54,618 nucleotides of DNA from a virus (Duplodnaviria > Caudoviricetes): positions 1-54,618 of IMG/VR virus record IMGVR_UViG_3300027790_000003. One strand, written 5' to 3'. The translations under genes were made by a program, and so were the position numbers. Under the pieces are notes generated by a model. It saw nothing but the letters and a program-made list of their open reading frames with translations, made no database searches and was not told the DNA's origin. Below are positions 11,452 to 44,893 of this stretch, in pieces. Positions within the stretch are counted from its first letter, which is position 1. The number at the start of each line of letters is the position of its first letter.

Positions 11452-11854
11452 TGACGAGCGAAGCGAGACAGTGACGAGTGACAAGGGGGTGACGGGGGTT
11501 TTGAGGGGTCGGCACGTCGTTTCGTCAAGCTATTAGCGGGTTTCGTGGGCCTTAGTGAAGATGTGTAGATGTTTTTACTAAAAAGCTAAGAAATGAGAAG
11601 AGGTATGTGTACACACGTATAAAAGGGGTCGATTTGATGTGCATCATCTACACTCAGGCACTTTAGCCGCTCGTAGCAAGGGTTTGCTGGGTGTGCAGAC
11701 GCAAAAAGAGCCTACACTTTTCGGCTGGGCATCGTCATTTTGAGTGAACATGAGCGAAATCATCGTAACTAAGGTTTTGAGAGCGGGAGGGGCACGAAAA
11801 GCAAGCGGGGCGGGGTTATGAGGTGGGGCGAGGGGGGCGTGGTGATCATAGTTA

Positions 11855-11882
11855 TTGACTTGTCATAGTTTGGAGTTATCTT
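11855..11882 (+). promoter_or_regulatory. Sigma70-like promoter for the helicase gene with a repeated TCATAGTT box
   Basis: TTGACT-16nt-TATCTT; TCATAGTT at 11846 and 11863. Confidence 0.5.
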
Positions 11883-11926
11883 GAAACGGTCTCGAGCGAT
11901 GAGCGTGAGGGACGGGAAAGACGAAG

Positions 11927-13246: not shown

Positions 13247-13257
13247 TAAGGAGGTGT

Positions 13258-14076: not shown

Positions 14077-14189
14077 CGTGAATTCAGTGCTCGGTGCTTG
14101 CTTTAAGTGCGGAGAAGTGCGACTTTTAGCGTTGTAGACCTTGATTAAGAGGTGAGATTGGGGTCAGGGGACCTGAATGTAGCGAAAAT

Positions 14190-14666
14190 ATGAAGCGGAC
14201 GAAGCAGATCGATGATGCAAGGGAGATTGTGCTCCCTTTCCAGGTTGACGGGAAGCAGGCGTGGACGACGGCGGGGTCTAAGCGGATGCACGGGGCTGAG
14301 AAGGAGGAGCTGAGTTCGAATATTCGGAGGCAGCAGTTGAAGGGGAACGTGCAGAAGCATGTGGAAGCTGTGATGAGTAACGCGCAGAAGTTTGTGCAAG
14401 CGACTATGTTCCAGATTGCGCCTGAGAAGGTGAGGATCGCGATGGCGAGGTGTGAGGGGAATGCGGCGAGCGAGGAGCAGATGTCTCTAATCGAGAGTTG
14501 GATTAACGAGATGCAGTTCGTGGCGAAGCAGGACGGGTTGACGACGGTTGTGAAGAGTAAGGGGAAGGTGTTGGGGGAGATGACCGCGAAGATGGACGGG
14601 ATTTTGAAGGGGCCGGTGGAAGAGGAGTTGAAGAGGCTCTTCGCGGAGGATGAGTTGGGCGAATAG
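14190..14666 (+). CDS. Hypothetical protein
   Basis: 158-aa ORF with the G-rich codon usage of its neighbours. Confidence 0.7.
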   Translation: MKRTKQIDDAREIVLPFQVDGKQAWTTAGSKRMHGAEKEELSSNIRRQQLKGNVQKHVEAVMSNAQKFVQATMFQIAPEKVRIAMARCEGNAASEEQMSLIESWINEMQFVAKQDGLTTVVKSKGKVLGEMTAKMDGILKGPVEEELKRLFAEDELGE

Positions 14667-14683
14667 ATGGGTGGAGCGAGGCT

Positions 14684-15310
14684 ATGAGGTTCTTTCCGAA
14701 TAAGACGAATAATCCACCGGGGGGTTGGCGGTTTACGGTCGAGGAGACGGGGGCGACGTTGAGGGGGACGAGTTTGGGGGAGGTTATGGTAGCGGTAAAG
14801 AAGCACTGGGAGGTCAACGGGATTGAGCCTATCGAGGATTTAGAGAGGGAGATTGAGAGACGGATTTGTGAGGAGGTTCCGGAGTATTGCGGGGCGAAGG
14901 GGATGGAGATCAAGCCGGTGCCGAAGAATCGGGGGCGGACGATCCACGAGGTGATTACGGGGACGAAGACCATCGGGATGTGGTTGGCGAAGAGGGCGAT
15001 GGGCGGGGGGAACGTGAGTGTTGAGGTGGCGGAGCGAAGGGCGAGCGTTTGTGTGGGGTGTGTGGAGAACACGGAGCCTACGGGGTGCTCGAGTTGTAAC
15101 AAGGCGGCGAGTAGTCAGGTGCTAGATAAGCTGGTGCCGTTCCGGACGAGTAAGGATGCGGCGTTGAAGAGTTGTCGGGTTTGTGGCTGCTGGCTTAGTG
15201 CGAAGATTGCTTGCCAATTAGACATCATCCGCAACAACATGCCGGATTACGTTAAGAAAGAGTTGCCTGATCACTGCTGGGTGAAGACTGAGCAGGTGAG
15301 TGATGAGTGA
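14684..15310 (+). CDS. Cys-rich zinc-binding phage protein
   Basis: PPGGWRF, CVGC, CSSC, CRVCGC, HCW. Confidence 0.75.
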   Translation: MRFFPNKTNNPPGGWRFTVEETGATLRGTSLGEVMVAVKKHWEVNGIEPIEDLEREIERRICEEVPEYCGAKGMEIKPVPKNRGRTIHEVITGTKTIGMWLAKRAMGGGNVSVEVAERRASVCVGCVENTEPTGCSSCNKAASSQVLDKLVPFRTSKDAALKSCRVCGCWLSAKIACQLDIIRNNMPDYVKKELPDHCWVKTEQVSDE

Positions 15311-15488
15311 GATGTTCAAGATTCGACAAGAGTTGTTCGTAGATTACGAGAACGAAGAACTTCGAGTCGAAATGAAGAGAATGACAGAGACGTTCTCCAA
15401 GTGGAGTTTAGATACGAGGGACGCGTTGATAAGACGAGGTTTAATTAACCTAGGGTGGACACCTCCCAAAGCTGAACGAAAAGACTGA
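15300..15488 (+). CDS. Hypothetical protein
   Basis: LINLGWTPP motif; overlaps the upstream stop. Confidence 0.55.
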   Translation: MMSEMFKIRQELFVDYENEELRVEMKRMTETFSKWSLDTRDALIRRGLINLGWTPPKAERKD

Positions 15489-15498
15489 GAAGGCGGGG

Positions 15499-15759
15499 AT
15501 GAGTGAGACGAGTGTTTGTGAGAAAAATCCTTGTCGCGTGTGTGATCGAGGTCTCGAGGAGGGTCAAGAGAGCTTTTACCAAGAGACGCTGAGAGGTATG
15601 TTGAACACGACTCTTTCAAATTTCGAAGGCGATACACGAAAACCTTTGACGCCATTGCAGAAAGAGATGCTGCGAGGTAAAATCGATTACCTCTCGAGAA
15701 TGGTTGAGGATTACTTGAAAGAAGAGTCGAAAAAGACTGAGAAGGCGAGGATCTCATAA
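15499..15759 (+). CDS. Hypothetical protein bracketed by 22-bp direct repeats
   Basis: 86-aa ORF; repeats at 15479-15500 and 15731-15752. Confidence 0.55.
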   Translation: MSETSVCEKNPCRVCDRGLEEGQESFYQETLRGMLNTTLSNFEGDTRKPLTPLQKEMLRGKIDYLSRMVEDYLKEESKKTEKARIS

Positions 15760-15776
15760 TATGAGCGGAGCGAATA

Positions 15777-18101
15777 ATGCCTGATAGTGAACAATTGATA
15801 AAGAACGGGAAGCCCCAGAAGCCGAGGATCGAGACTGCGTCGCAGGCTCAGACGTGGTTTGGGCTTTGGGAACAAGCGGCTGAAGGCCGTTTGGCGAAGG
15901 CGGCGGTTATCGAGGGGATGTTTAACGGGAATCCGCCTTATAGACGGGATTTGAGGGCGAAGGATGGGCAGAACTGGAGGGCGAATTTCAACACACTGGA
16001 GGGGGCGAGCCGGAAGGATGCGGCGAAGACTCCGTTCTATGACCTTTTTAACTCGTCGAAGCACTTCTTTGAGGTGACGACGAAGGTGGATAATCCGGAA
16101 GGGTTGGACGCTGTGAAGGCGGGGCGGGTGATGAGCGAGGTCTTCGATGAGGTCTTGAAGGAGTGGAAGGACTTTCGGTCGAACGTGAATACGATGCTGG
16201 AGGACTTCATCAAGTTCAATAAGGGATTTCTTTGGTGGAGGCGGGATGACTCGTGGCGGTTTCAGCGGTTGCCGTGGCATCGGGTTTACTTTCCTGACGG
16301 GACGGGGGTTGATACGGATGAGTGGGATATGTTCGGGATCAGGCATACCTTCTCGGTGGAGCGGATGTGGAATGCGGTGAGGGATCGGGAGAGGGCTGAG
16401 GCTGCGGGATGGAACGTGGATGCGGTGATGAGGGCGATCAATAAGGCTGTGCCGGATTGGGATACAGAGGATCCGTTGGAGATTCAAAGACGGCTTAACG
16501 AGACGGTGGTGAGTCCGACCGCGATGGCGAATACGGTGCAAGCCGTGAGCGTTTACTGGAAGGAGTTGGACGGGAAGTGGTGCCGGATGATGGTGCCCTA
16601 CTTTAATGAGGAGAGGACGAGTCCGAGTGGGAAGCCTACGAGTCGGTTGGAGAGGGCGATGCATGAGTTGCCGAAGGCCGAAGAAGAGGTGCCGGGAGAT
16701 GAGTGGTTGTTCAAGCGGGACGGGATTACGGAGGACGTGTGCGAGTTGATGGCTTGCTTCTTCTTTGAGGTGAATGAGGGGAGTGTGAACGCGCTTGAGG
16801 GGCTTGGGAAGAAGATCGTGAGTATGGTGCAGGTGAATGACCGGATCGCGAATCGGATTGCGGATAACACGATGTTGAGGCAATCGATTATCTTGCAGCA
16901 GCAGACCGGGAGCAGTGTTGTGAAGAGTGGGTTGGTGCATCAGGGGAACGGGGTGACGGTGATTCCGCCGGGGATGCAAGCGGTGACGGGGGCCTTGGTG
17001 GGTGATATTGAAGCTGGGTTGGCAGTGACGCAGGACTTCAATAGGCGGATGGACGTGAACACGGGGGTGTATCGACCTCAGTTCGAGAAACAGAAGGGGA
17101 ACCCCGAGAGTGCAACGGCAGCTAGTATAAGGTTCAATCAAAGCACGGTTTTGTCAAGTAGTGCCGTGGATCGGTTTCTGGATCAGTTGGATTGGTTCGG
17201 GAAGGAGTTGTGGCGGCGGATGAACCTGGAGATGCTGAACCCTAAGAGCGTGGACCCAGGGGTGAAGAGTGCGATTGACTTCCAGAAAAGGTTGAGGGAA
17301 AGGGGTGTGAGTAAAAAGCAGGTTGAGGACTCGCTGAAGCGGAAGACGACGAGGGCTATGAGGGCTATCGGGAATGGGAGTATGACGCAGAGGCAGCAGG
17401 CGATTGGGGCTTTGGCGCCACTGGTGGGGCAGATGGGGCAGAGGGGGCTCGAGAACTACCAGGACGATTACGTGAGTGCTTACGTGGGGACCGAGAAGGT
17501 GAGTCGGTATTTTCCGTTCAACGATCGGGCGAAGGTGCCGACGAATGACGATTGGCAAGCGACGAGTGAGAATAACGATATGCAGCAAGGTGCGCCTCCT
17601 TTGCTGGCGGAGGGGCAGAACAGTGAGGTTCACGCGGCGAGGCATCTGGAGACGGGCTTTGCGGCGGTCGAGGCTGTGGAGCAGGGGGCTGATCCTACGA
17701 GTGCGGTGGCGTTCTTGGAGATCGCGATTCCGCATATTCAAGAGCATATCGGGTTGATCGGGCGCGAGGAGGTGCGGAAGGAGGCTGAGGCCGCGTTGAA
17801 GCAGCTTGAGAGTGGTCAAGGGATGGTCATTGCGAGGGCTGAGGAGTTGCAGGGACAGCGGGAGCAGCAGGAGCAGTTGACGTTCGAGCAAGGGTTGAAG
17901 CAGCAGGAGACTCAGGCGAAGCTTGAGGAGAGGGGCTTGAAGTTGGAGCAGCAGATGCAGCAGAAGAACATGAAGTTCGAGCAGGACGCTGAGATAAGCA
18001 GGGCGAGGACGCTGAACGAGATTCAGACGAAGAATGTGCTGACCGCGAATCAGGTTGCGAATGAAAACCGAAAACGAAGAAGCTCGGAAAAGGCTTCTTA
18101 A
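15777..18101 (+). CDS. Portal protein
   Basis: 774 aa, helical with Q/E-rich C-terminal coiled coil, SATAA motif; first large gene of the head module. Confidence 0.8.
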   Translation: MPDSEQLIKNGKPQKPRIETASQAQTWFGLWEQAAEGRLAKAAVIEGMFNGNPPYRRDLRAKDGQNWRANFNTLEGASRKDAAKTPFYDLFNSSKHFFEVTTKVDNPEGLDAVKAGRVMSEVFDEVLKEWKDFRSNVNTMLEDFIKFNKGFLWWRRDDSWRFQRLPWHRVYFPDGTGVDTDEWDMFGIRHTFSVERMWNAVRDRERAEAAGWNVDAVMRAINKAVPDWDTEDPLEIQRRLNETVVSPTAMANTVQAVSVYWKELDGKWCRMMVPYFNEERTSPSGKPTSRLERAMHELPKAEEEVPGDEWLFKRDGITEDVCELMACFFFEVNEGSVNALEGLGKKIVSMVQVNDRIANRIADNTMLRQSIILQQQTGSSVVKSGLVHQGNGVTVIPPGMQAVTGALVGDIEAGLAVTQDFNRRMDVNTGVYRPQFEKQKGNPESATAASIRFNQSTVLSSSAVDRFLDQLDWFGKELWRRMNLEMLNPKSVDPGVKSAIDFQKRLRERGVSKKQVEDSLKRKTTRAMRAIGNGSMTQRQQAIGALAPLVGQMGQRGLENYQDDYVSAYVGTEKVSRYFPFNDRAKVPTNDDWQATSENNDMQQGAPPLLAEGQNSEVHAARHLETGFAAVEAVEQGADPTSAVAFLEIAIPHIQEHIGLIGREEVRKEAEAALKQLESGQGMVIARAEELQGQREQQEQLTFEQGLKQQETQAKLEERGLKLEQQMQQKNMKFEQDAEISRARTLNEIQTKNVLTANQVANENRKRRSSEKAS

Positions 18102-18207
18102 CGAGATCGAGGAGTTGCTGAGTGGCGAGGAGAGTGAGGCTAACGGTGTTCGGGTTGAGAAACTGATAGAGCGATTGGAGAGACTAGATGAAAGATCCGA
18201 GGGATAA
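18061..18207 (+). CDS. Small coiled-coil protein (48 aa)
   Basis: MKTENEEARKRLLNEIEELL...; fills the gap after portal. Confidence 0.4.
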   Translation: MKTENEEARKRLLNEIEELLSGEESEANGVRVEKLIERLERLDERSEG

Positions 18208-18364
18208 GGAGTTTCGGAGTAAGGCGGACTTGTATGCCTATGACAATCGGAGTAGGGGTGCGGGGAAGGGTGATAGGATTCCTGGGTTTAAACCGGGAGA
18301 GTATTACGGGAGAGAGATTGAGAGAATCTTCAAACATAAGAAGGTGAAGCGGTATGGCGGCTAA
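18188..18364 (+). CDS. Small basic protein (58 aa)
   Basis: GAGKGDRIP...ERIF motif seen in small phage proteins; below the ORF-track cutoff. Confidence 0.55.
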   Translation: MKDPRDKEFRSKADLYAYDNRSRGAGKGDRIPGFKPGEYYGREIERIFKHKKVKRYGG

Positions 18365-18686
18365 GAGGACGAAGAAGATCGATAAGCATTTGGCGTTGGA
18401 TGGGATTGAGTTGGAGGCGTGGCGAAGAGAGCCGACGCTGTTGAAGTGGGCGCAAAATCATCGCTACTTCAAGTTACTTGTGACGGTGATGGTGAAAGAG
18501 AGGAAGCGGGTTATTGGGGATGACCCGACGGTGACGGAGAACCGGAAGCTCGGGAGAGTGGAGGGTTATGAGGAGGCGATTAACGTGCTACTGGAGATGT
18601 CCAGGAGTATGCCGAAGGAGCCGGAAGTGGATGAGACGATGACTTACAACTCGGAGGAGACTTTAGAGGAAAGTTTGATAGACTAA
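18354..18686 (+). CDS. Hypothetical head-region protein
   Basis: GRVEGYEEAINVL; conserved position between portal and scaffold. Confidence 0.7.
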   Translation: MAAKRTKKIDKHLALDGIELEAWRREPTLLKWAQNHRYFKLLVTVMVKERKRVIGDDPTVTENRKLGRVEGYEEAINVLLEMSRSMPKEPEVDETMTYNSEETLEESLID

Positions 18687-18689
18687 ATT

Positions 18690-19871
18690 ATGAGTGACGA
18701 GACAAGTGTTACAAGTGGAGAGGCCATCTCGCGTGTAGAGCGCGTGGGAGGTGAGGTTGAAGCTAAGTTTGACGTGGGGGCTTTCGAGAAAGCGAGGGCT
18801 GAGGACGATGCGGGGAAGGTGAAGCCTCAGAGTGAGGACGTTCAAAGTGAGAAATCTGTTGCTGATGCAACCGCTACCGAAGGGAAGAAGGAAGGGGAGG
18901 AGGATTCAAGGGTAAATGAGTCTTCCTCCCCTTCGAGTGCTCCGATGAACCCTTTCGAGAAGAATCCTACGAAGGCGGCGCAATGGAAGGAGATGAAGAC
19001 GAAGCACGCGAATGAGGTGGCGGCTTTGCAGAAGCAATTGGTTGAGTTGCAAGAGGCTCAGGGGAAGGGGTCAGAAGAGCTTGCGAAGGAGAGGGATGAG
19101 TATCGGAATAGGTTGCGAGAGGTTGCGCTTGAGCGGGATCCGGAGTTCAACCGGAAGTATGAAGTTCAGATGGAGAGCGCGATTGAGGGGGCGAGGCAGG
19201 CGGCGGGAGCCAAGGGAGATGAGCTTGCGAGTTTGTTGAAGGGGCCTGGTGGGCCTTGGCGGGATCAGAAAGTTAACGAGTTGCTCGGGGAGGTTGACGA
19301 TATGTCGAAGGTGAGGCTGATGGGGGCTTTGCAGACCTTGTCGACGATTGAGTTTCAGAAGCAGAGTGAGATACAAGCGAGCTTGTCGAACTGGGATCGG
19401 CAGCAAGAGGAGCTGAGTGTGATGAGTCAGCAACAGCAGGCGGAGACCCAGAGGCAATACGAGGAGATCTTCGAGAAGAAGTTAGGGGAGCTGCAAGGGG
19501 ATGGGAAGCTGGGGAATTGGCTGTTTAAGCAGATTGAGGGGAACGAGGAACACAACAAGTCTGTGGCTCAAAGTGTTGACGAGGCGAAGATCATCATGCG
19601 GGGTCAGATGACGCCGGAGAAAGCTGTGGAGATTGCATTGAATCAAGGCGCGTATCCGAGGTTGGTGAGCGCATTCAACGATGTGGTCGCGGAGCGTGAT
19701 GCGTTGCATGAGAAGCTGAACGAGTTGCAGGAAGCACAGCCGGGGATCGGGTCGCCGGGGATTACGAAGGACGGGGGGACGAACATGAAAGTGGGAGATC
19801 CTCAGTATGCCCAGTATTTGGCGAATGGGATTGCGGCAGCGCAGGCACAGGATCGAGCCGGGAAGATGTAG
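18690..19871 (+). CDS. Capsid scaffolding protein
   Basis: Acidic disordered N-terminus, long coiled coils, head-module position. Confidence 0.7.
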   Translation: MSDETSVTSGEAISRVERVGGEVEAKFDVGAFEKARAEDDAGKVKPQSEDVQSEKSVADATATEGKKEGEEDSRVNESSSPSSAPMNPFEKNPTKAAQWKEMKTKHANEVAALQKQLVELQEAQGKGSEELAKERDEYRNRLREVALERDPEFNRKYEVQMESAIEGARQAAGAKGDELASLLKGPGGPWRDQKVNELLGEVDDMSKVRLMGALQTLSTIEFQKQSEIQASLSNWDRQQEELSVMSQQQQAETQRQYEEIFEKKLGELQGDGKLGNWLFKQIEGNEEHNKSVAQSVDEAKIIMRGQMTPEKAVEIALNQGAYPRLVSAFNDVVAERDALHEKLNELQEAQPGIGSPGITKDGGTNMKVGDPQYAQYLANGIAAAQAQDRAGKM

Positions 19872-21535
19872 TGGAATTGCTTGTTGTCGTGCCGCTCTCA
19901 GCGAGGAATGAGAGCTTGTTCGAAACAAACCTCGACTTGGTGAAGCACCTTGACCCGAAGGGGACGGGGTTCTCGATGTTGATCACGCATGACGGGGAGG
20001 TGAGGATCTCGGAGCTTGCGAAGAAGGCGAGAGAGAGCTTCGTGAGTGTCTTCACGATGAAGAGGAACTCAATAGCGGGGGTGAAGGAATATCCGGTGGG
20101 GGAGAATCGGGTGTGGCAGCAAAGCGCGAGGTATGTTGAGGCGAACTTCGCGAAGAGTTATAAGGGGTGGTTCTGGTGGGAACAGGATGCGTGTCCTTTG
20201 AGAAGTGGGTGGCTGAAGACAATTAAGAAGGTTTGGCAAGAAGGGGGGAAGCCTTTCTGCGGGTATGTCTACAGGGGGCCTACGGTAAGTCCTTTTATGG
20301 ATCGGTGTGGTGTTTGGCCTACGCATGTGACGAGGTTTCTGCAAGGGGGGACTTTGTATGTGACGAATGCGCCGTTCGATAGAATCGCGGGGCTAGAGGC
20401 GTTGCCTAATACGTGTGAGAGTAACTACGTGTTGACAACGCAGAGTGATACGTTTCGGTTAAGTAAGATCGAGCAACGATACCCTGACGCGGTTTTGCTG
20501 CGAGGGTGTCACGGGATGGTTCAGGAGGTGTTGCAAGGGAAGAGGGAAGTGAGTGATGTCGATGAGGCTATTGCGAAGAACTTCTATCCGAGTTATCTGG
20601 AGCAGACGGAGTGGGATTGCGGGATGTTCGCGTTTCCGTTTTTAGAGAACGGGTGTTACTTTAATCCTGGGCTCGCGAGGGTGAGGGGGAAGTTGCAGCT
20701 TTTTACGAGGCAGTTTCAATATGGGGTCGGGAGGATTGAAGGTGAGCAGACGACGGACAAGAAGAGTCGGCTTGTGGTGTGGGAGATCGATGAGAGGACG
20801 ATGAGTGTGAAGAGCACTAATATGATTCCCGTTGAGCCGAAGAGGCATGTGAATGAGCAGTGGGAGGATCCTAGAGCGATTGTGCATGATGGTGAGGTCT
20901 ATGTGGGGTTTGCTACTTGGGTGAGAACGAAGGATTGGAAGATACGGCAGGCATTGACAAAGTTGGATTGGGATTTGGAAAAGTTTGACGTGATCGTTGA
21001 GCCGGAGTTCGGGGGAAATCATCCGAGGCCCGAGGCGGCGAGTGGGCATGAGAAGAATTGGCAGTGGTTTGTGCATGATGGGCTGTGGCACTGTGTGTAT
21101 TCACCTTCGCCTCAAATGGTGTTTCGACTTGACGAGCGGTTGAGGGTTCAGAGGCATTGGAAAGGGAAGCACCGGATGAAGTGGGACTTCGGGGATATCC
21201 GAGGGGGGTCGCCGCCGGTGAGGTTGAACGATGACGAGTATTTGAGTTTCTTCCATTCGGCTTTGCAGTGGAGGGGGCCGAAGAGAAGGTATTACATGGG
21301 GGCTTACACGTTCGAGGCGAAAGCGCCGTTTGAAGTGAAGCGGATGACGAGTGTGCCGCTGTTGGTGGGGAGCGAGAGAGATTTCAGGGCCTGGGAAAGT
21401 CCGTTGGTGATCTTCCCCGAGGGGCATGTTTACGAGGAGGGGGTGCATCTGGTGACGTTCGGGGTGAACGACGAGCAGTGTGGGTGGATCAAGATTCCGA
21501 ATAAGGACTTAATGAAGAGATTGGAACGAGTATGA
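19871..21535 (+). CDS. Two-domain carbohydrate enzyme: GT-A-like N-domain plus five-bladed beta-propeller (GH130/GT91-like)
   Basis: N-domain WFWWEQDACP; C-domain FNPG, WEDPR, EKNWQWF, IRGGSP, FFHS, VIFPEG, FGVND. Confidence 0.7.
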   Translation: MELLVVVPLSARNESLFETNLDLVKHLDPKGTGFSMLITHDGEVRISELAKKARESFVSVFTMKRNSIAGVKEYPVGENRVWQQSARYVEANFAKSYKGWFWWEQDACPLRSGWLKTIKKVWQEGGKPFCGYVYRGPTVSPFMDRCGVWPTHVTRFLQGGTLYVTNAPFDRIAGLEALPNTCESNYVLTTQSDTFRLSKIEQRYPDAVLLRGCHGMVQEVLQGKREVSDVDEAIAKNFYPSYLEQTEWDCGMFAFPFLENGCYFNPGLARVRGKLQLFTRQFQYGVGRIEGEQTTDKKSRLVVWEIDERTMSVKSTNMIPVEPKRHVNEQWEDPRAIVHDGEVYVGFATWVRTKDWKIRQALTKLDWDLEKFDVIVEPEFGGNHPRPEAASGHEKNWQWFVHDGLWHCVYSPSPQMVFRLDERLRVQRHWKGKHRMKWDFGDIRGGSPPVRLNDDEYLSFFHSALQWRGPKRRYYMGAYTFEAKAPFEVKRMTSVPLLVGSERDFRAWESPLVIFPEGHVYEEGVHLVTFGVNDEQCGWIKIPNKDLMKRLERV

Positions 21536-21765
21536 AGTATTTCTGGTTGATTGCGACAACGCCTGTTCGGGTTGAGGAGAGGAACGCGATAGTGATGGCT
21601 CCTTGTGAAGAGGTGGCAGTAGAGGCTGTTAATTTGGGGAGTGATTCGATCTGGGCGGGGTATGTGTCGGTGAGGGAGATACATGAGGAGTTTGTGGACG
21701 GAGGACTTGATCGAGAGATTGTGCCTCATTCGGATAAAGCGAGTAAGATACTAGAGTTGTTTTAA
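21532..21765 (+). CDS. Hypothetical protein
   Basis: 77-aa ORF coupled by ATGA overlap. Confidence 0.55.
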   Translation: MKYFWLIATTPVRVEERNAIVMAPCEEVAVEAVNLGSDSIWAGYVSVREIHEEFVDGGLDREIVPHSDKASKILELF

Positions 21766-21766
21766 T

Positions 21767-22471
21767 ATGAGAGTCGAAGAGGAGTTACCGAAGATGCTTT
21801 GTATCGTGTTGCCGGAAGAGCCGTGGAAGAAGCAACAAGCTGAGAAGCACTTTTTGAAAGAGGGCCTGGATGTGCTGTTTGTGGATGGCATCTACGGGCC
21901 TGTGGTTGGGCTGAGACCTACGAACCCTTTCGAGGATGATGAGCAAGGGCGGGGGAAGTATATCCATGCGAGTCAAGTAGGTTGCTACTTGAGTCACCTG
22001 GTGGCACTGAGGACGGCGTTAGCCTTTGAGTGGGACGAGTTCATTATCTGCGAGGATGATGTGAAGTTTTTGCCGGGGTTCTCGGAGAAGTGGCGGCAGT
22101 TGAGGGGGAGGTTGCCGGAGGACGCGGAAGTGGTGCAACTCGAGTATTACTTCGGGGGCGATGGGTTGGGCGGTGATTACAATCCGGAGAGGACAGGGGA
22201 GTTGCATAAGGTTGCGGAGGGTTTGGCGAGGACGGATAAGTATCCCTATTGCACCGCGTGCATCTGGTGGAAGAGGAGCGCGGCGAAGAAGGCGATTGAA
22301 CTGTTGAAGCCGATCGATAAGCCGTTTGATACGTCGTTGATGATGAAGGTCTATCCCTTCGTGAGTCACTACTTGGCTTGGCCCTACCTGGCTAGTCAGA
22401 AGACGAGGATCAGTGAGTGGGCTTCGACGGTGGGGGATGCCCCGAAGGCGGAAAGCGAGCAACAGAATTGA
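21767..22471 (+). CDS. Glycosyltransferase family 25-like
   Basis: FVDGIYG, GCYLSHL, ICEDDV, CTAC, PFD. Confidence 0.85.
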   Translation: MRVEEELPKMLCIVLPEEPWKKQQAEKHFLKEGLDVLFVDGIYGPVVGLRPTNPFEDDEQGRGKYIHASQVGCYLSHLVALRTALAFEWDEFIICEDDVKFLPGFSEKWRQLRGRLPEDAEVVQLEYYFGGDGLGGDYNPERTGELHKVAEGLARTDKYPYCTACIWWKRSAAKKAIELLKPIDKPFDTSLMMKVYPFVSHYLAWPYLASQKTRISEWASTVGDAPKAESEQQN

Positions 22472-23109
22472 TACCCGAGGAGTGGACATCTCATTTGATC
22501 TCGACGAGGTTCTCGGCGGGGTTGGACAAAACGCATGAGCACCTGGATGAAAGGGAGGTGAGGTTCAAACTTTTCTACGGGCTCGATCACGAGGTGTCAG
22601 GGATCTGCCATACCCTGCATCCGTATGATCTGGATGATCATGCTACGCATCGGCATTTGTTGCCGAAAACGATCAACATTCATCTCTCGCACTACATGCT
22701 GTGGGCGGCGTTGAATGTGTTGTCGGAGACGCCTTACACGGGGCATCTGATCATGGAGCAAGACGTGAGATTTGAGGAGGACTGGGCTGAGAGCTTGGGA
22801 GCCGTGCTGGAGTTTCTGCCGGATGATTGGGATCTCCTTTACCTGGGGTCTTGCAACTGTCGGCATTTTGCGGGACCTGACTCGTTGCTGGGTGGGGGGC
22901 TTTATAGTGTGCCTTCCGCGAGTTGTCTTCACGCGTATGTGGTAAGGGGGAAGGCATTGCCGGTGTTGCTTGAGAGGTGTGAGAGGGTGTGGGCGCCGAT
23001 CGATCTTTCGATGCACCAGGACAGGTCGAGGAGGGGGACGAGAGCTTTGAATAGTTACGCGGTGTTTCCGAGGTTGGCAACGCAGTTGGACACGAGGATA
23101 CCTGAATAA
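22468..23109 (+). CDS. Glycosyltransferase family 25-like (paralogue)
   Basis: LSHYMLW, MEQDVRF, LPDDWDLLYLG, CLHAY, APID; probable TTG start overlapping the previous TGA. Confidence 0.8.
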   Translation: MIPEEWTSHLISTRFSAGLDKTHEHLDEREVRFKLFYGLDHEVSGICHTLHPYDLDDHATHRHLLPKTINIHLSHYMLWAALNVLSETPYTGHLIMEQDVRFEEDWAESLGAVLEFLPDDWDLLYLGSCNCRHFAGPDSLLGGGLYSVPSASCLHAYVVRGKALPVLLERCERVWAPIDLSMHQDRSRRGTRALNSYAVFPRLATQLDTRIPE

Positions 23110-23112
23110 CCT

Positions 23113-24201
23113 ATGCTTCCTTTAACGTTTGCTGTGACGCTTGCTGATTGGTCCGAGAACCAGGATATGCTGCGTATGATGTTGGCCTCCTTGAAGCGGC
23201 AGACAAGGAAGGACTTTAACGTCATCTTGGTGGATCATCATTACCAAGCGAGGAAAGGGGCTGTAAGAGAGTTAAGGGGTGAGTGCGACTTTGAAGTTCT
23301 GCACATGCCACATTTCCCTGCTCCTCATGTGGCGAAGCGTTACATGGATTGCTCGGTGTTCAATGCAGGCTGGGTGATGAGTGAGGCAGAGAGATGTGTG
23401 CGATTCTCGGAATGGCGTTTTCTTAAATCGGATTTCGTGGCGACGTTGCTAGCTGAGAAGGCTGAAGCTTTCGTAGATTTCTACTTTCACGAGATACCGG
23501 AGGGTGCTGACGTTTGGGATAGGGAGAGGGCACGGATTAAATGGGAGAACGTAGGGGATTACCCTGAGAAGTTTGAGCTATTCTTCAGGACACCGAGTAA
23601 CTGCTTTGCCAATAATGCTTTGTCTAGGGAGCTTTGGTTGGATGTGAATGGTTTCAACGAGGTTTCGTTCAACTTCTTTCATTGGGAGGACATCGATTAT
23701 GACGCTAGGTGCGGTCATGCGGGTTACTCGGGTAAACGTATCCCGAATCAGATGTTTCGAATTCACCACCAATACGGGAGTCTACAGAACAGGGCTAAGA
23801 GGGAGATGGAACTACCTTTCAAGAGTCTGTGTGCGAGGTGTGAGGCTACGCATAGTAAGGCCGTGAATGAGATAGGCGCTGTCTCTCATCCGCAATGGGT
23901 GGAGTGTTTCTCGAAACGTGAGGGAGGTATGGGTAAGGTAGAGCAGAACGGGAAAACCTGGATGGTGTGTGAGGATTGCAATTTCATCTTCCCCGCGCTG
24001 CCTGATGACGACATAGTCGCTTATGCGAGTGAGGATAAGCATTACAAGAGATCTCCGATTAACGTATCGGGATCGGGGAGGAATCTGAGGCGTTTGAGCG
24101 ATGACTTGAAAGGTAAGAGGTGGGAGGAGAAGATCGAGATCTTCAATGCTTCGTGGACAAACCCGAGATACTTGGAGGAGGATGTTGAGTATGGACTATG
24201 A
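23113..24201 (+). CDS. GT-A glycosyltransferase (GT2/GT7 C-terminal-like)
   Basis: SLKRQT..DFNVILVD, FNAG, VNGFNE, WEDIDY, IHHQY. Confidence 0.8.
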   Translation: MLPLTFAVTLADWSENQDMLRMMLASLKRQTRKDFNVILVDHHYQARKGAVRELRGECDFEVLHMPHFPAPHVAKRYMDCSVFNAGWVMSEAERCVRFSEWRFLKSDFVATLLAEKAEAFVDFYFHEIPEGADVWDRERARIKWENVGDYPEKFELFFRTPSNCFANNALSRELWLDVNGFNEVSFNFFHWEDIDYDARCGHAGYSGKRIPNQMFRIHHQYGSLQNRAKREMELPFKSLCARCEATHSKAVNEIGAVSHPQWVECFSKREGGMGKVEQNGKTWMVCEDCNFIFPALPDDDIVAYASEDKHYKRSPINVSGSGRNLRRLSDDLKGKRWEEKIEIFNASWTNPRYLEEDVEYGL

Positions 24202-24781
24202 GGCTTGCCACAACGCTTTCAAAGGGAACGAGGAGTTATGTGAGGCAGTTCTGAAGTTCAGTGATATTAGCTACTTTCTTCCGATACTCTACTTCGAGGT
24301 TCTGATGAGAGGCGAGACGACGTCTATTGAGAATGTGGTGGAACTAGGTTCACGGGAGGGGGAATCTTCTGTTGCGCTTTTCTCTGCCATTTGCGAGTTG
24401 AATCGTTGTTACGGTTACAACGGGGTCTTCACTTCGGTGGATATCGACGCTGCCTGCGAAGAGGCTTTGAAGGAGCGGCTTGGGAGAGTAGGGGAGAGGG
24501 GTTGTTGGCGTCATATCGTGGGCGACTCGATCGAAGTTAGATGGACAGAGCCGATTGACTTCCTGCTCATTGATACGTCACACGAGGAGGAGCAGACGAG
24601 GAAGGAACTGGAGAAGTGGAGTCCGTTCATCAAACCTTCGGGGACGATCTGGCTGCATGATACGAAGAGCACTGAGGGCGTTAGGAGAGCCGCGCTCGCT
24701 TGGTTGGAGAAGCAGGGTGCTGGTTGGGAATGGTTCGAGGCTCCTACATATGCAGGTCTGGGATGGTTGAGGAGATTATGA
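24191..24781 (+). CDS. Class I SAM-dependent methyltransferase (Methyltransf_24-like)
   Basis: VVELGSREGES, SVDID, GDS, IDFLLIDTSH, IWLHD. Confidence 0.85.
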   Translation: MDYEACHNAFKGNEELCEAVLKFSDISYFLPILYFEVLMRGETTSIENVVELGSREGESSVALFSAICELNRCYGYNGVFTSVDIDAACEEALKERLGRVGERGCWRHIVGDSIEVRWTEPIDFLLIDTSHEEEQTRKELEKWSPFIKPSGTIWLHDTKSTEGVRRAALAWLEKQGAGWEWFEAPTYAGLGWLRRL

Positions 24782-25764
24782 TCACGATCGCTTACATGAC
24801 GAATCGGAAGGTTTGCCACATTCGCTGGTTCCTCGATTCGCTGAAGAGGGAGCTGGACGGTTCAGATGAGGAGGTCCAACTCGTTGTGGTGGACTTCTAC
24901 AAAGGTTTGCGAGAGCTTGATCTTCGTGATGATCTAGCTGTCACTCACGTTAAACCAAAACCGTGCGTTTGGCAAGGGGAGTATCGACTAACATCAAGGG
25001 ATTATTTTGCGGCAGCTAACGCGAGGAATACGGCTGTGTGTGTGGCGAAGGGGGACTACCTAGTGTGTGTCGATGATCTGAGTGTCTTGGTGCCCGGGTG
25101 GCTCAAAGAGGTGGAGAGGGCTAGGGCTGAGGGCTGGGTAGCTTGCGGGAGTTACGGGAAGGTCAAGGAGTTGAGGGTGAGTGAGGGCAGGATACGAGGT
25201 TTTAAGGGACTGGATGAGGAGGCTTTGAGTAAGGCTTTACCGGGGGATGTGGGGAGGGTTATTCTGGAGGGGATGGAGAAGGGGTTTTCTGGCGGGGTGG
25301 ACTCGAGGTTGAAGAAGATCACTCATTGGGATCCTTTGAGATGTGATGGAGGTTGGGCCTTCGGGTGTAGCTTCGGGGCTCCTTTGAATGCGATCTTGCA
25401 GGTGAATGGTTGGGACGAGGATAACGATTCTATGGGCGGCGAGGATTATGCGATGGGGATTATGTTGGTGGCGCAAGGGTTTAAGCTTCACTACATCCCG
25501 AGGATGATGACACTCGAGAGTGAAGAGGATCATGGGAACGAGGAGCCTTTTCTGCGTATTATCAAAGAACTGAAGGGGAAGCCTGATGCCTCGCATGTCA
25601 TGCTGAATTGGCTGAGGACAGGGCGAAGGAAGAAGAGTTTGAACTACATGGGGTCAGGGGGATTGAGAGGTTTGCGGGATTTGGTGCTTTCGACGGGGAA
25701 GTTTCCGGTGATCAAGATACCGCAACACGATTGGAGAGACGGGCAACCTTTGAGAGAGATGTGA
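24778..25764 (+). CDS. GT-A glycosyltransferase
   Basis: VVVD, ARNTA, CVDDL (DxD), VNGWDE, GGEDY; start MITIAY with ATGA overlap. Confidence 0.85.
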   Translation: MITIAYMTNRKVCHIRWFLDSLKRELDGSDEEVQLVVVDFYKGLRELDLRDDLAVTHVKPKPCVWQGEYRLTSRDYFAAANARNTAVCVAKGDYLVCVDDLSVLVPGWLKEVERARAEGWVACGSYGKVKELRVSEGRIRGFKGLDEEALSKALPGDVGRVILEGMEKGFSGGVDSRLKKITHWDPLRCDGGWAFGCSFGAPLNAILQVNGWDEDNDSMGGEDYAMGIMLVAQGFKLHYIPRMMTLESEEDHGNEEPFLRIIKELKGKPDASHVMLNWLRTGRRKKSLNYMGSGGLRGLRDLVLSTGKFPVIKIPQHDWRDGQPLREM

Positions 25765-25768
25765 GATT

Positions 25769-26416
25769 ATGACAGCGTTGAGTGAGAAATTAGAGCATTA
25801 CGTGAACACTTTCATGCCGACCATTCACGGTTGGTGTGATCCTTTCAAGGCGAGGGACATTATAAAAACGGTGCTCGAGGACAAGCCGGTGATCTCAGTT
25901 GAGATTGGGGTCTTCGCTGGTAGATCGTTGTTTGCGGTGGGTGCCGCACTAGAGGAGATTGGGGCGAATGGGCAGGTTTACGGGATAGATCCTTGGAGTT
26001 CGGAGGCGTGCGGGCAAGGTTACGAGAAGGATGATCCGAACAAGGAGTGGTGGGATAGCGTGAATATGGGAGCTATTGAGCGGAGCGTTTATGACGTAAG
26101 GTCTTACTTGAACCTGACGCACAGGGTGCAACTTCTGAAAGCCAAAGCGGTGAGTGCTTACCCTAGATTTCAAGAGTGGCACAAGAAAGACTCTCCTATC
26201 GATTTTCTCCACATAGACGGGAATCATTCGGAGGAGACTTCAAGTGCTGACGTGGAGCTTTATCTGCCTTTGGTGCGAAGTGGGGCTACCGTGTTCATGG
26301 ACGATACGAACTGGGAGTCGACGAAGAAGGCTCAAAGAATGCTGCTCGAGTTTTGCGAGGAGCCGAGGATTGAGGAGAGTGAGTCGCATTGCTATGGAGT
26401 TTACAAGAAGAAGTAG
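25769..26416 (+). CDS. Class I SAM-dependent methyltransferase (Methyltransf_24-like)
   Basis: VEIGVFAGRS, YGIDPW, IDFLHIDGNHS, VFMDD. Confidence 0.9.
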   Translation: MTALSEKLEHYVNTFMPTIHGWCDPFKARDIIKTVLEDKPVISVEIGVFAGRSLFAVGAALEEIGANGQVYGIDPWSSEACGQGYEKDDPNKEWWDSVNMGAIERSVYDVRSYLNLTHRVQLLKAKAVSAYPRFQEWHKKDSPIDFLHIDGNHSEETSSADVELYLPLVRSGATVFMDDTNWESTKKAQRMLLEFCEEPRIEESESHCYGVYKKK

Positions 26417-26651
26417 CGAGACGTTCTTGCTTGTTGTGTTGGCGTTCGTGGTAGGTTTTCTATTCTCGATGATCCTGACGGCTTTAAGCTCTTCCTCTTT
26501 GACAGCGGAGGCGGAGAAGCGGACGGAGAGCTACCGGCAGGCATACATGCACGTTATGACTGAGCTAGAGATGATGAGAGAGACCTTGAAGATGACGGAG
26601 ATCTATGCCGAGAGTCTGAAGAAGAAGAAAGCGAAGGACAGTAGCCCATGA
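26394..26651 (+). CDS. Small membrane-anchored coiled-coil protein
   Basis: Start MEFTRR at 26394; TM segment FLLVVLAFVVGFLFSMIL followed by a charged helix. Confidence 0.55.
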   Translation: MEFTRRSSETFLLVVLAFVVGFLFSMILTALSSSSLTAEAEKRTESYRQAYMHVMTELEMMRETLKMTEIYAESLKKKKAKDSSP

Positions 26652-27157
26652 AGAGTTATAGTCAAGTGGGTCAGGATTTGTGGGCTCTCGAGAACGTGAA
26701 GGAGAGTCGGACGTATCTCGATGTGGGTGCGAGTCAGGCGATCTTTCACAATAACACCTACCTGCTCGATTTGAAGGGCTGGGAGGGTCAATGCTTCGAC
26801 AAGGACGAGGAGCACCGGGAGGAGCATGAAAGGATGCGGACCAGTGAGTTCTTCGTGTGTGACGGACTGAGCTATGACTGGGGGACTCATTTTGAAGGGT
26901 TTGCCACGAAGAGCTTGGGTTACCTGTCGCTGGATTGCGATGAGGATTCGACGGGGGTTATGGAGAGGATTCTGGGCTATGTGCGCTTTGAGGCGATTAC
27001 GGTGGAGCATGATGCTTACCTGCACGGAAATAAGTATCGAGGAGAACAGAGGAGGTTTTTGCGGGACCGGGGATATGTGTTAAGTCACATGGACGTGAAG
27101 TGCGAGCATGGGGGGTTTGAGGATTGGTGGTTGACACGTCCCGAACTTGTGCGATAA
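26648..27157 (+). CDS. FkbM-like (Methyltransf_21) methyltransferase
   Basis: YSQVGQD, YLDVGA, NNTYLL, YLSLDCD, ITVEHD, EDWW. Confidence 0.85.
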   Translation: MKSYSQVGQDLWALENVKESRTYLDVGASQAIFHNNTYLLDLKGWEGQCFDKDEEHREEHERMRTSEFFVCDGLSYDWGTHFEGFATKSLGYLSLDCDEDSTGVMERILGYVRFEAITVEHDAYLHGNKYRGEQRRFLRDRGYVLSHMDVKCEHGGFEDWWLTRPELVR

Positions 27158-27158
27158 T
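27131..27158 (+). promoter_or_regulatory. Promoter for the major capsid gene
   Basis: TTGACA-16nt-(TGc)GATAAT. Confidence 0.7.
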
Positions 27159-27163
27159 CGAGT

Positions 27164-27337
27164 GGTCGGATTACTATGGGCCAGGCTCTGCCCGTCGCAA
27201 GACAAAGAGCTATTCCGTCGAGTGTTAACTCACTTTACCAGGTCGGAATAGTCCCGTTGACCGGGGACAAACAGGAGACACGGACGAGTCGCGAGTGCGA
27301 TTCGAGTAGCTGTGTCTCGTAAACTTAACTGTTTGTC
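27164..27337 (+). ncRNA. Structured 5' leader RNA of the capsid gene
   Basis: Multi-stem junction with GCAA tetraloop plus a three-stem rod ending 3 nt before the ATG. Confidence 0.6.
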
Positions 27338-27340
27338 AGT

Positions 27341-28546
27341 ATGTCTTGCGAAGCTGTAACTAATTTCGTGCATAACGAGACCGGAAGGTTCGTTGTGCCT
27401 ATCATGCAGAGGCGCGTTTTTCAGCGTAGTCTCTGGTTAAACATCATCCGCCGTGGCGAGTGGCTTAATGGAATGGGCCCGTCACTCAACGTTCTCTTCT
27501 ACGAGCGTAGTGCTCCCACTGAGGCGGATCCGACATGGACAAATATCCATCCAAGCGGCGTAATCCCTGACGGGGCTGCTGGTGGTAGCTGTCTGCCTCC
27601 CTCTGAGAAGATCCCAATCGCCTCGACCACGAGAAGCTTTTCGCTCGAGCGGATTGCGAGAGAAGGTCCTGATATCTGTAACATCGATATCATGCCTGCC
27701 TTCGACTTGCAGAACCAGCTTGAGAGCGTTGCCGGGATTCTGGGCGATTACTCGCGGATCTTGTGGGAAATCAAATATCGACACGAGTATTTCCGCTTGT
27801 GTCAAACCAAGGTCGTTGTTGACGACTGTGCGAGCGGGGCTACGAGTTCTGATACGTTGGCAACGACGTATCCTTCGGCTTGTCCTACACAACCTCTTCA
27901 TATGGCGATTGTCCGCTACCACTTCATCGAGCAAATGCGTGATGGGGCGGGAGCTGACGCTTTGCTGAGGGGTGCCGGCGGTTCGCCGCTGGGCATCATG
28001 ATCGTCTCGAACGAGACACGAGGGAACATCATCCGGCAGAATGGCGATATCCGAGAAGATATCCGCGAGAGTAACATGAACAACCTGCTCGTGCGAGCGT
28101 TTGGTGTTTCACACTCTTACGGGGACATCGCATGGTTGGCTGATCCGTATCCTCGTCGTTTCTCTTGCTCGGGTGGCACGTTCACCGAGATCCCGGCCTT
28201 CGCGTTGGGTAGCAATGCTACACGAGGACAAGAAGCTGTCGTCAATCCTACGTGGAAGACGGCGGCGGATGAAGAGTCCTTCTTGTTCGATCCCGAGGTG
28301 ATGGAGTCTCTGATTCCTCGTCCTCCGACTGCACCACATCCGAACTTCCAGTTCGATCCTGTGAACTTCACGGGCGCTGTGACGTTGAAGAACATCATCG
28401 ATCGAACCTGTAACCCTGATGGGACTGTGATCTATCACCGTCTCCAGTTGGGTCATGCAGGTAAACCGAAAGAGACTTGGCGCGGAGTGGCGTTTGTCCA
28501 CAATCGTTGTGATCCAATGGGCTGCACTCTCGTCTGCGCCTCCTAA
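27341..28546 (+). CDS. Major capsid protein
   Basis: 401 aa, own strong promoter, distinct high-expression codon usage, position between scaffold and tail genes. Confidence 0.8.
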   Translation: MSCEAVTNFVHNETGRFVVPIMQRRVFQRSLWLNIIRRGEWLNGMGPSLNVLFYERSAPTEADPTWTNIHPSGVIPDGAAGGSCLPPSEKIPIASTTRSFSLERIAREGPDICNIDIMPAFDLQNQLESVAGILGDYSRILWEIKYRHEYFRLCQTKVVVDDCASGATSSDTLATTYPSACPTQPLHMAIVRYHFIEQMRDGAGADALLRGAGGSPLGIMIVSNETRGNIIRQNGDIREDIRESNMNNLLVRAFGVSHSYGDIAWLADPYPRRFSCSGGTFTEIPAFALGSNATRGQEAVVNPTWKTAADEESFLFDPEVMESLIPRPPTAPHPNFQFDPVNFTGAVTLKNIIDRTCNPDGTVIYHRLQLGHAGKPKETWRGVAFVHNRCDPMGCTLVCAS

Positions 28547-28970: not shown

Positions 28971-28980
28971 CAATCAACCG

Positions 28981-29010
28981 GGGAGGGTAACCTCCCCCTT
29001 TTAACTTTTT
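28981..29010 (+). terminator. Rho-independent terminator
   Basis: GGGAGG-GTAA-CCTCCC followed by CTTTTAACTTTTT. Confidence 0.75.
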
Positions 29011-29442
29011 ATGGCAACATTCAATAACGCGGCTCTTCTCGCTCTAGGTGGGCGAATGAACCAATCTAACGTCTCCGCTTACAACAAGGACGACGTGATG
29101 AAACTGACGCTGCAAGCGTTGGGCGAACTAGAGTTAACTGCTTCGACTTCTTCCGCTCTAGCAACGTTGTCATCTTCGGATACTTCACAGACACTTACCG
29201 TGGATGCTACCGCTGGAGGGGTTCAGCTCTCGGCTTTCTCTGCTGATACGACACAGGTGTATGTATCGGTTCAAGATCAAGCGGTAAGGGTAACCTTCGA
29301 CGGGTCGGCACCGACTACGTCTCATGGGCATACGCTCGAAGTAGGTTATCAAGAGCTTTGGTCGAAAGACCTCGCTACTGCCGCCAAGTTCATACGCGAT
29401 AACGGCACGGACGGACAAGTCCACGCCTCACCCTTAAAGTAA
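29011..29442 (+). CDS. Virion structural protein
   Basis: VRVTFDGSAPT..HG motif typical of small phage structural proteins. Confidence 0.65.
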   Translation: MATFNNAALLALGGRMNQSNVSAYNKDDVMKLTLQALGELELTASTSSALATLSSSDTSQTLTVDATAGGVQLSAFSADTTQVYVSVQDQAVRVTFDGSAPTTSHGHTLEVGYQELWSKDLATAAKFIRDNGTDGQVHASPLK

Positions 29443-44806: not shown

Positions 44807-44893
44807 TCAAAACCAATAACGGATAACGTAAGCGATAGTGAGCCATACAAGGACTACAGTGGTGAACGCATCTAATGTCTCGTCTCTTGTCAT
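44807..44893 (-). CDS. Small membrane peptide (28 aa)
   Basis: MTRDETLDAFTTVVLVWLTIAYVIRYWF; ATGA overlap with the polymerase stop. Confidence 0.4.
   Translation of the reverse strand: MTRDETLDAFTTVVLVWLTIAYVIRYWF

Follow-up and report, generated by a model that had tools for sequence, protein, structure and literature searches.

The window analysed here is the whole of a 54,618-bp virus record (IMGVR_UViG_3300027790_000003; Duplodnaviria, Caudoviricetes), a complete record with direct terminal repeats. Between the open reading frame (ORF) at 26648-27157 and that at 27341-28546 lies a gap of 183 nucleotides (nt). It holds the leader of about 175 nt considered here, which is preceded by a predicted sigma-70-type promoter and heads a 16-kb run of plus-strand structural genes. 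No Shine-Dalgarno motif was found ahead of the capsid gene ATG at 27341. A first-pass annotation of the bare sequence had read this leader as a highly structured RNA that pairs up the initiation region of a capsid gene, and all of the motifs it named were found in place when the sequence was read directly (Table 1). The analysis presented here supports a real and conserved RNA structure in the leader, with covariation in relatives and an HK97-fold product encoded downstream, and replaces part of the fold initially proposed with a different arrangement.

The downstream gene encodes, as judged from a structural model of its product, an HK97-fold major capsid protein. The protein matched no Pfam or PHROG entry, searches of 50,697 deposited phage genomes with blastn and tblastn gave no match and hence no cultured relative, and the 165 database relatives detected at E ≤ 0.001 are all annotated no further than “hypothetical”. 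An AlphaFold2 model based on 28 homologues (predicted local distance difference test score, 72.1; predicted template modelling score, 0.71) was used for Foldseek comparisons with the PDB, which gave 236 matches at E ≤ 0.001; those listed were phage capsids, HK97 included, with the N4 capsid 9e99_A as the best match (2e-10), and a fold search against BFVD led to the same result. Five cysteines (Cys3, Cys84 and Cys113, along with C390 and C399 at the C-terminus) are invariant across the 28 homologues and may form disulfides or a metal site.

Folded as a single sequence, plus-strand positions 27160-27345 reached -68.6 kcal/mol, a value better than expected from shuffled controls (z -2.96, with 1 of 200 shuffles as good), and the 3' domain (27239-27343) gave a z of -3.74, again with 1 of 200 shuffles as good. 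The minus strand folded less well (-57.3 kcal/mol, z -2.18, 3 of 200 shuffles as good), and about 39 of the 436 pair cells scored in the alignment described below are G·U, which would read A·C on the other strand, in line with the earlier suggestion that the structure acts at the RNA level on the plus strand. The fold includes a rod of three successive helices (base, middle, and apex), the 3' end of which lies 3 nt from the ATG. The initiation region is indeed paired in this fold, positions 27329-27337 having an unpaired probability of at most 0.01. A 48-codon ORF within the leader (27176-27322) is not conserved in relatives: it stops after 10 codons in the 93% clade and has no ATG in the 82% clade.

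Conservation of the structure was evaluated from a sequence-only MAFFT alignment of nine leaders, comprising that of the window, four from the 93% clade, three from the 82% clade, and one from the 83% clade; these correspond to only four sequence types and hence to few independent events. RNAalifold recovered the GCTCT/AGAGC helix and the rod from this alignment, with 7 of 26 pairs changed on both sides. When a fuller structure of 54 pairs was imposed, 83.9% of the 436 cells were paired, a share that fell to 32.6-44.0% once the partners were slid by 1-3 columns. Changes on both sides were seen in 14 pairs (2-7 when slid), and the covariation score was 0.249 (0.04-0.10 when slid), a score that none of 500 shuffles reached. 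Support was strongest for GCTCT/AGAGC, in which 4 of 6 pairs are compensatory, for the rod middle, with 4 compensatory pairs of 9, and for the rod base, all of whose cells are paired (100%). Of the helices numbered 9 and 10, both in the rod, the former had 1 pair changed on both sides and 100% of its cells paired, and the latter 4 such pairs and 85% of its cells paired. The apex hairpin was out of register in the MAFFT alignment, its sequence being replaced outright from CGAGUCGC/GCGAUUCG to CUUUAGC/GCUAGAG while still forming a hairpin. For six leaders of a distant clade, RNAalifold predicted only 3 pairs, and a structure drawn by us on that alignment was paired in 77.3% of cells compared to 28-50% when slid, a modest signal given that 12-15 of 500 shuffles reached it.

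Two helices that had been proposed to close a junction, GGTCG/TGACC and ATGGG/CCCGT, did not withstand this comparison. In the 93% clade their outer pairs, G27164-C27262 and A27176-U27257, both become A·C, and the 82% clade loses further pairs; as the alignment holds indels in this region, the sequences were also read directly. The bases involved instead join pairings that recur across the family, namely GGGC/GCCC, GGTC/GACC, and GTCCC/GGGAC. The revised architecture is one of two pseudoknot-type units, PK1 and PK2, each with two helices (S1 and S2), followed by a rod with an RNGU-loop apex (Table 1). In PK1, S2 is an extension of the GCTCT/AGAGC helix noted above, with 100% of cells paired in the nine-leader alignment, while S1 is invariant in the near clade and is represented in the distant clade by GGCTC/GAGCC and CGCTC/GAGCG in the same arrangement. 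The P3 hairpin overlaps the PK2 5' strand (GGTC) and loop 1; it was paired in 80% of cells, with 2 pairs changed on both sides, and is absent from the 82% clade.

Table 1. Features of the capsid-gene leader and its flanks. Positions are those of the window; rod-base partner ends are given relative to the start codon, and L numbers denote relative loci.
Feature	Position	Strand	Sequence elements	Remarks
Sigma-70-type promoter	27131..27158	+	TTGACA, TG-n-GATAAT	TTGACA at 27131, 16-nt spacer, TG-n-GATAAT ending at 27158
Junction helix, first-pass annotation	27164-68 / 27258-62	+	GGTCG / TGACC	
Junction helix, first-pass annotation	27176-80 / 27253-57	+	ATGGG / CCCGT	
PK1	27178..27211	+	S1 GGGC / GCCC	S1 27178-81/27190-93; S2 27184-89/27206-11
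GCTCT helix	27185-89 / 27206-10	+	GCTCT / AGAGC	encloses GTC-GCAA-GAC 27194-203
Mini hairpin	27194..27204	+	GUC-GCAA-GAC	specific to the window's clade; alternative long-range partner
P3 hairpin	27211..27250	+	TATTCCG / CGGAATA	27211-17/27244-50; inner hairpin 27220-27231; clade-specific
PK2	27241..27268	+	S1 GGTC / GACC; S2 GTCCC / GGGAC	S1 27241-44/27259-62; S2 27251-55/27264-68
Rod	27266..27337	+		minimum free energy fold and nine-leader covariation
Rod base, window	27266-74 / 27329-37	+	GACAAACAG / CTGTTTGTC	partner ends at -4
Rod middle	27275-83 / 27310-18	+	GAGACACGG / CTGTGTCTC	
Rod apex	27285-92 / 27297-304	+	CGAGTCGC / GCGATTCG	apex as a whole 27285-27304
Rod base, L013			AAGACAAAA / TTTTGTCTT	partner ends at -1
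Rod base, L003			GGCAAATAGT / ACTATTTGTT	partner ends at -6
Rod base, L035			GGAGACAAAACC / GGTTTTGTTTTT	partner ends at -1
Major capsid protein gene	27341..28546	+		401 amino acids, HK97 fold

A wider sample was obtained from the DNA of 3 + 12 + 78 + 2 relative loci, 69 of which included at least 250 nt upstream of the capsid gene and provided 56 distinct upstream sequences, or 49 leaders once 7 near-duplicates were set aside. A long non-coding gap ahead of the capsid gene is general in this family according to a rough stop-to-stop estimate, and, judging from these sequences, the family as a whole has a conserved -35 box followed by a leader some 140-210 nt long, even where capsid identity is as low as 40-48%. 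Family members originate from marine, soil, and groundwater samples, and all 165 capsid relatives are uncultured. The only genome matches, two metagenome-assembled genome contigs (L095 and L096), carry both the capsid gene and the leader; naming hosts from their bins (Dehalococcoidales and Verrucomicrobia) was rejected, as these are probably phage contigs swept into the bins.

Within this sample, a hairpin with an RNGU loop and a stem of at least 4 base pairs (bp) was found 40-65 nt before the ATG in 17 of the 49 leaders, against 0.78 ± 0.88 in shuffles (maximum 4 in 300), and the GUGU loop alone in 11 leaders against 0.09. The stems of these hairpins are all different, with a closing pair that is mostly C-G, and the window's own apex, CGAGUCGC-GAGU-GCGAUUCG at -48 (loop at 27293-27296), represents the same element. 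A loop held constant while its stems vary is what would be expected if a protein or a second RNA recognised it, and this hairpin may be such a site. GNRA hairpins, on the other hand, were not enriched in the same leaders (14 of 49, against 12.1 ± 2.9), and GCAA hairpins were marginal (8 against 2.8, with a shuffle maximum of 8).

The PK2 arrangement (a, loop 1, X, loop 2, a', loop 3, Y, where a:a' is S1 and X:Y is S2) could be placed in 24 of the 56 distinct leaders by eye from candidate lists; an automatic best-parse gave many spurious parses, and MAFFT alignments of the PK2 core, in which stems were off by one column, were not used for pair counts. Loop 1 measures 4-8 nt in 23 of the 24 and 13-17 nt in L019, and around 15 further leaders fit with a longer loop 1, several of these holding an inserted hairpin. 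Across lineages, both helices change sequence together in the 24 leaders, whose parses were chosen by complementarity: S1 takes the forms GGTC/GACC, AGACC/GGTCT, GGCC/GGCC, GGGTC/GACCC, CGGGCC/GGCCCG, ACGGA/TCCGT, and GGGC/GCCC, and S2 the forms GTCCC/GGGAC, GTCTC/GAGGC, GTCTT/AAGAC, GCCG/CGGC, GGGAAA/TTTCCC, and GCTCT/AGAGC. Two covariance models, built from six relatives and from nine relatives (the latter including near-clade seeds L021 and L019), provide independent support for PK2. With the six-relative model, default filters gave 12 matches and missed the window, for which PK2 was retrieved at E 9.3 once filters were turned off. With the nine-relative model and filters off, the two best non-seed matches in 97.5 kb were PK2 of the window (E 0.56) and PK2 of L001 (E 0.68), with two more at the homologous place in L029 and L046. 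Applied to both strands of the whole window (54.6 kb), the same model placed its top match at 27238-27276, correctly aligned, with 12.8 bits and E 0.31.

The rod base and the 3' arm of PK2 share GAC at 27266-27268. More generally, the central strand (27259-27274) is made of the PK2 3' half followed by A-rich bases, and has two competing partners, either GGTC and GTCCC upstream, forming PK2, or the U-rich stretch before the AUG, forming the rod base. Leaders with different sequences show rod bases of the same kind (Table 1), and a composite search for PK2 plus a contiguous rod base reusing its 3' arm and ending at most 9 nt from the ATG retrieved 8 of 49 leaders at a score of at least 17, compared to 0.39 ± 0.58 in shuffles (maximum 2 in 100), and 7 of 49 compared to 0.11 at a score of at least 18; at the loosest setting the excess was small (16 compared to 8.05). 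We also folded the 3' domains of 12 diverse leaders and read the dot-brackets by eye. In 10 of the 12 minimum free energy (MFE) folds, bases within 7 nt of the start pair with the strand that contains or follows the PK2 3' half, ending at -1 to -7. Nine of the 12 nested MFE folds combine a:a' with a closed rod and leave X unpaired, and in seven of these nine (the window, L003, L019, L013, L010, L049, and L035) the rod also comes within 7 nt of the start. In L072, a GGAG ribosome-binding motif pairs with the PK2 loop in the MFE fold. Eight of the 12 domains reached z ≤ -2.5, the others being L049, L046, L059, and L074.

For the window itself, forcing 27326-27343 open cost 14.2 kcal/mol (-78.4 against -64.2), while forcing S2 of PK2 cost 6.5 kcal/mol. 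An additional pairing, between UCGCAAGACA (27195-204) and UGUCUUGCGA (27342-351), covers the UG of the AUG along with codons 2-4, and is used in the MFE fold of 27164-27355 (duplex -16.6, z -2.7); one of its pairs varies from G-C in the window to G·U in L001 and A-U in L002. As a family-wide feature this pairing was rejected, with only 2 of 51 leaders at z ≤ -2.5, and it is treated here as specific to the window's clade.

Upstream of the leader, the promoter-like site agrees with the consensus at 11 of 12 positions and carries the additional TG; it is the top-scoring site in 7 kb, in a region where such sites are not in excess (4, against 4.3 ± 2.2 expected), overlaps the stop codon (27155-57) of the preceding ORF, and predicts an RNA start near 27164-66. 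In relatives, 48 of the 56 upstream stretches carry TTGAC at -245 to -165, where shuffles give 4.1 ± 1.8, and only this -35 box (TTGACA) is well kept, the corresponding -10 boxes being weak (TAGGCT, TACGGT, TACCCC, and similar). The GATAAT of the window is an exception among these poor -10 boxes, and the promoter of most family members may need an activator or another sigma factor. No phage RNA polymerase was found among the ORFs scanned in the window, which is consistent with a host-type promoter at the leader. In the 82% clade (L003 at 2790-2830; L021, L022, and L095), a terminator-like hairpin with a T-run lies immediately 5' of the leader's TTGACA, which supports the view that the leader opens its own transcription unit. 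In the window, a G+C-rich terminator-like hairpin followed by a T-run is found at 28980-28997, after the ORF that follows the capsid gene, and could be a terminator separating capsid from tail transcripts. No terminator-like hairpin with a T-run was found within the leader.

Taken together, we give a probability of roughly one half to the reading that the leader is the 5' untranslated region of the capsid mRNA and acts in cis on its translation. Because the rod base and the PK2 3' arm share bases, such control would probably take the form of a translational switch or operator with two states. What the computations above show directly is the structure and how it is conserved, the bases that are shared, and a start that is predicted to be masked. 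From these, we infer that the two states would alternate in vivo and in a given direction, that translation would be the process under control, and that a factor would be involved. Under this scenario, transcription from the host-type promoter would yield an RNA that forms PK1, then PK2, then the rod with its RNGU apex. Since upstream partners emerge first, a fresh transcript would have an open start: with PK2 holding the central strand, the initiation region would be free, whereas closure of the rod base would mask it, the 27195-204 pairing adding to this masking in the window's clade. The closed rod would represent the thermodynamic end state. The balance between the two would be set by a factor, probably a protein, bound to the RNGU hairpin or to a knot, or by the order of folding, and would in turn determine the amount or the timing of capsid synthesis.

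Several points weigh against this reading. A strongly masked start is odd for a capsid gene, which needs very high expression, and the A-U rich rod base might open easily. Many other genes of this phage have a weak Shine-Dalgarno motif or none, so that the absence of one here is not special. The nested MFE fold of the window forms S1 and the closed rod and not S2, and some 3' domains of relatives fold no better than shuffles (L049, z -0.41; L046, z -0.87). The placement of PK2 is itself exposed: parses in distant relatives were complementarity-chosen, the top-scoring knot candidate of several leaders differs from the placement used, and in a test of single sequences for knots against shuffles, which lacks power, only 7 of 56 leaders reached p ≤ 0.05, the score of the window being 9.0 where the null gave 8.4 (p 0.49). 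With single parses no rarer than in shuffles, the weight of PK2 thus rests on its recurrence at the same place. Likewise, 8 of the 21 matches of the nine-relative covariance model lay elsewhere, and its E-values for the window are weak (0.3-0.6). Finally, on geometric grounds, with a loop 3 of 0-3 nt, S1 and S2 of PK2 may not coexist as a classical H-type knot, and the PK units may be pairs of alternative hairpins in which S1 and S2 alternate.

A bolder version of the translational reading holds that the leader would found a new class of riboregulators of phage late genes, in which a tandem-knot and rod two-state switch is read by a dedicated factor at the C-(G/A)NGU-G hairpin. This factor would be a phage protein or unassembled capsid or scaffold protein, and capsid synthesis would thereby be coupled to the state of infection or assembly. 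We regard this proposal as tentative and somewhat unlikely. Little is known about how tailed phages set a high and timed capsid output beyond promoters and terminators, and, if true, a 175-nt multi-helix leader with competing start-codon pairings would add a post-transcriptional layer of control. The leader would then also be a concrete target for structure probing, with a hairpin that is a candidate for protein binding, and would add a family to RNA catalogues, and the promoter-plus-leader unit could mark the start of late operons when annotating such metagenomic phages.

It is unlikely that the leader serves instead as an mRNA stabiliser against 5'-end-dependent decay, as an RNase III processing site within the 26-bp rod, or as both, even though several features fit such a role. 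The rod is a long and imperfect duplex (9 + 9 + 8 bp) of the irregular kind, at least about 20 bp in length, on which RNase III acts; no more than about 15 nt separate the predicted 5' end from the first structure; and the capsid gene is the first after the promoter, with the terminator-like hairpin at 28980-97 downstream. A cut in the rod would shorten the leader, exposing the start and producing a stable end, and the RNase III sites of T7 and of the lambda N leader, along with ompA-type stabilisers, provide precedents. A stabiliser alone, however, leaves unexplained why the rod 3' strand tracks the AUG (-1 to -7 in 10 of 12 folds) and why upstream competitor strands co-vary with the central strand, and an RNGU loop is not, to our knowledge, a determinant of bacterial RNase III cleavage.

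A small-molecule riboswitch, in which the pseudoknot or pseudoknots would act as an aptamer and a ligand would free or mask the start, appears very unlikely. The overlap between the 3' arm of the knot unit and the start-masking strand is a layout used by preQ1-I/II, SAM-II, and SAM-V switches. Against this, no Rfam riboswitch model matches at E ≤ 10, PK2 loops 1-3, unlike ligand pockets, differ freely across the 24 leaders parsed, in length as well as in sequence, and the regulated gene encodes a capsid protein with no metabolic link. We attach an equally slight probability to an element acting on transcription, either a polymerase-modifying RNA such as HK022 put or an attenuator of late-operon read-through. 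The leader does adjoin a conserved promoter box at the head of the structural run, with a terminator-like hairpin 1.6 kb downstream, but its lack of a terminator-like hairpin and T-run of its own, a co-varying pairing that reaches 1-7 nt from the AUG, which a polymerase-directed element would not need, and the lack of any Rfam match in the window all argue otherwise. Least probable of all is a leader with no function of its own, be it a chance spacer fold or a DNA-level element such as a protein-binding palindrome: the single-sequence z is moderate (-2.96) and the minus strand also folds somewhat better than shuffles (z -2.18), yet such an origin fits poorly with covariation, with compensating changes and G·U pairs specific to the plus strand, and with a leader length, promoter box, RNGU hairpin, and rod that are kept down to 42-48% capsid identity.

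Elsewhere in the genome, the large terminase is encoded at 9532-11451 and a tailspike gene lies just 3' of the capsid gene region. Directly 5' of the capsid leader, a plus-strand run of glycosyltransferase-like and Methyltransf_24-like ORFs (21767-27157) could have virion proteins or DNA sugars as substrates. GC skew of the plus strand is extreme (+0.3 to +0.47) over the terminase-to-transferase genes (10000-27300) and drops to about 0 from around 28 kb, just past the start of the capsid leader and gene, with genes still on the plus strand. On the minus strand, a 1310-amino-acid ORF (44890-48822) fuses a uracil-DNA-glycosylase-superfamily domain, a 3'-5' exonuclease, and a family A DNA polymerase (PolA). 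ARAGORN called a tRNA-Arg(TCT) at 29207-29288 (+), within ORF 29011-29442, which is probably a false positive, as Rfam gives no tRNA at gathering score in the window.

Regarding novelty, the first-pass annotation had inferred that the RNA is undescribed, and no Rfam 15 family matched the leader. A search of 26500-28000 at E ≤ 10 returned six weak matches, all of them outside 27131-27343 and short of the gathering score, and no family matched at gathering score in the whole window or in 20 related loci. Among the papers listed in searches on capsid-leader pseudoknots and GUGU tetraloops, none was found to describe this element. A 2023 intergenic screen of IMG/VR (PMC10690425) reported 8,495 candidate structured RNAs (csRNAs, “DNAVirus_X”) with motifs of 29-151 nt, five of which precede the major capsid protein family PHA00201. 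Like these csRNAs, the leader is a comparative motif directly upstream of a phage gene, and unlike those listed there, which are tied to proteins with known domains, it precedes a capsid protein without one.

The closest systems by working principle, drawn partly from PMC535899, PMC3014915, and PMC7038950, include the pseudoknot in the T4/T2 gene 32 mRNA leader, presented in PMC535899 as an autogenous translational operator and, according to PMC10690425, without an Rfam model. Like gene 32, the capsid gene studied here has a phage mRNA leader with a pseudoknot-type element, putative in the present case, 5' of the initiation region, where it would serve translational control, and neither leader is in Rfam. 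In gene 32, an unstructured A/U-rich tract separates the knot from the start and the product binds nucleic acid, whereas the leader studied here has two knot-type units, has the rod in this interval, and precedes a capsid gene. The preQ1-I/II, SAM-II, and SAM-V switches resemble the leader in having small knot-type units whose 3' strand also belongs to the element that governs access to the start codon, and differ from it by their model matches, conserved loops, and metabolic gene context, as well as by the direction of the effect, knot formation being expected here to free the start instead of hiding it.

In the lambda cIII and Mu mom leaders, access to the start region depends on pairings that exclude one another, and the small phage protein Com of Mu binds a hairpin beside the masked mom start and activates translation. 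Alternative pairings at the start region would be a common point, although there is no homology in sequence or structure, the leader described here is far larger, and its binding factor is hypothetical. RNase III hairpins occur in T7 mRNAs, both early and late, and in the lambda N leader; as in these, a long irregular duplex, here of about 26 bp, stands in a phage mRNA leader directly ahead of a gene with high expression. The conserved tetraloop and the upstream competitor strands set the present leader apart from such sites, and any cleavage of the rod is hypothetical. Overall, this leader is a real and conserved RNA with a plausible mechanism of action, undescribed as a family, although a piece of it may be among the reported csRNAs. 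It belongs to none of the known systems compared here, and combines a knot-type strand shared with the start-codon element, predicted alternative pairings at the start region, and a long irregular duplex, each of which has a counterpart in one of them.

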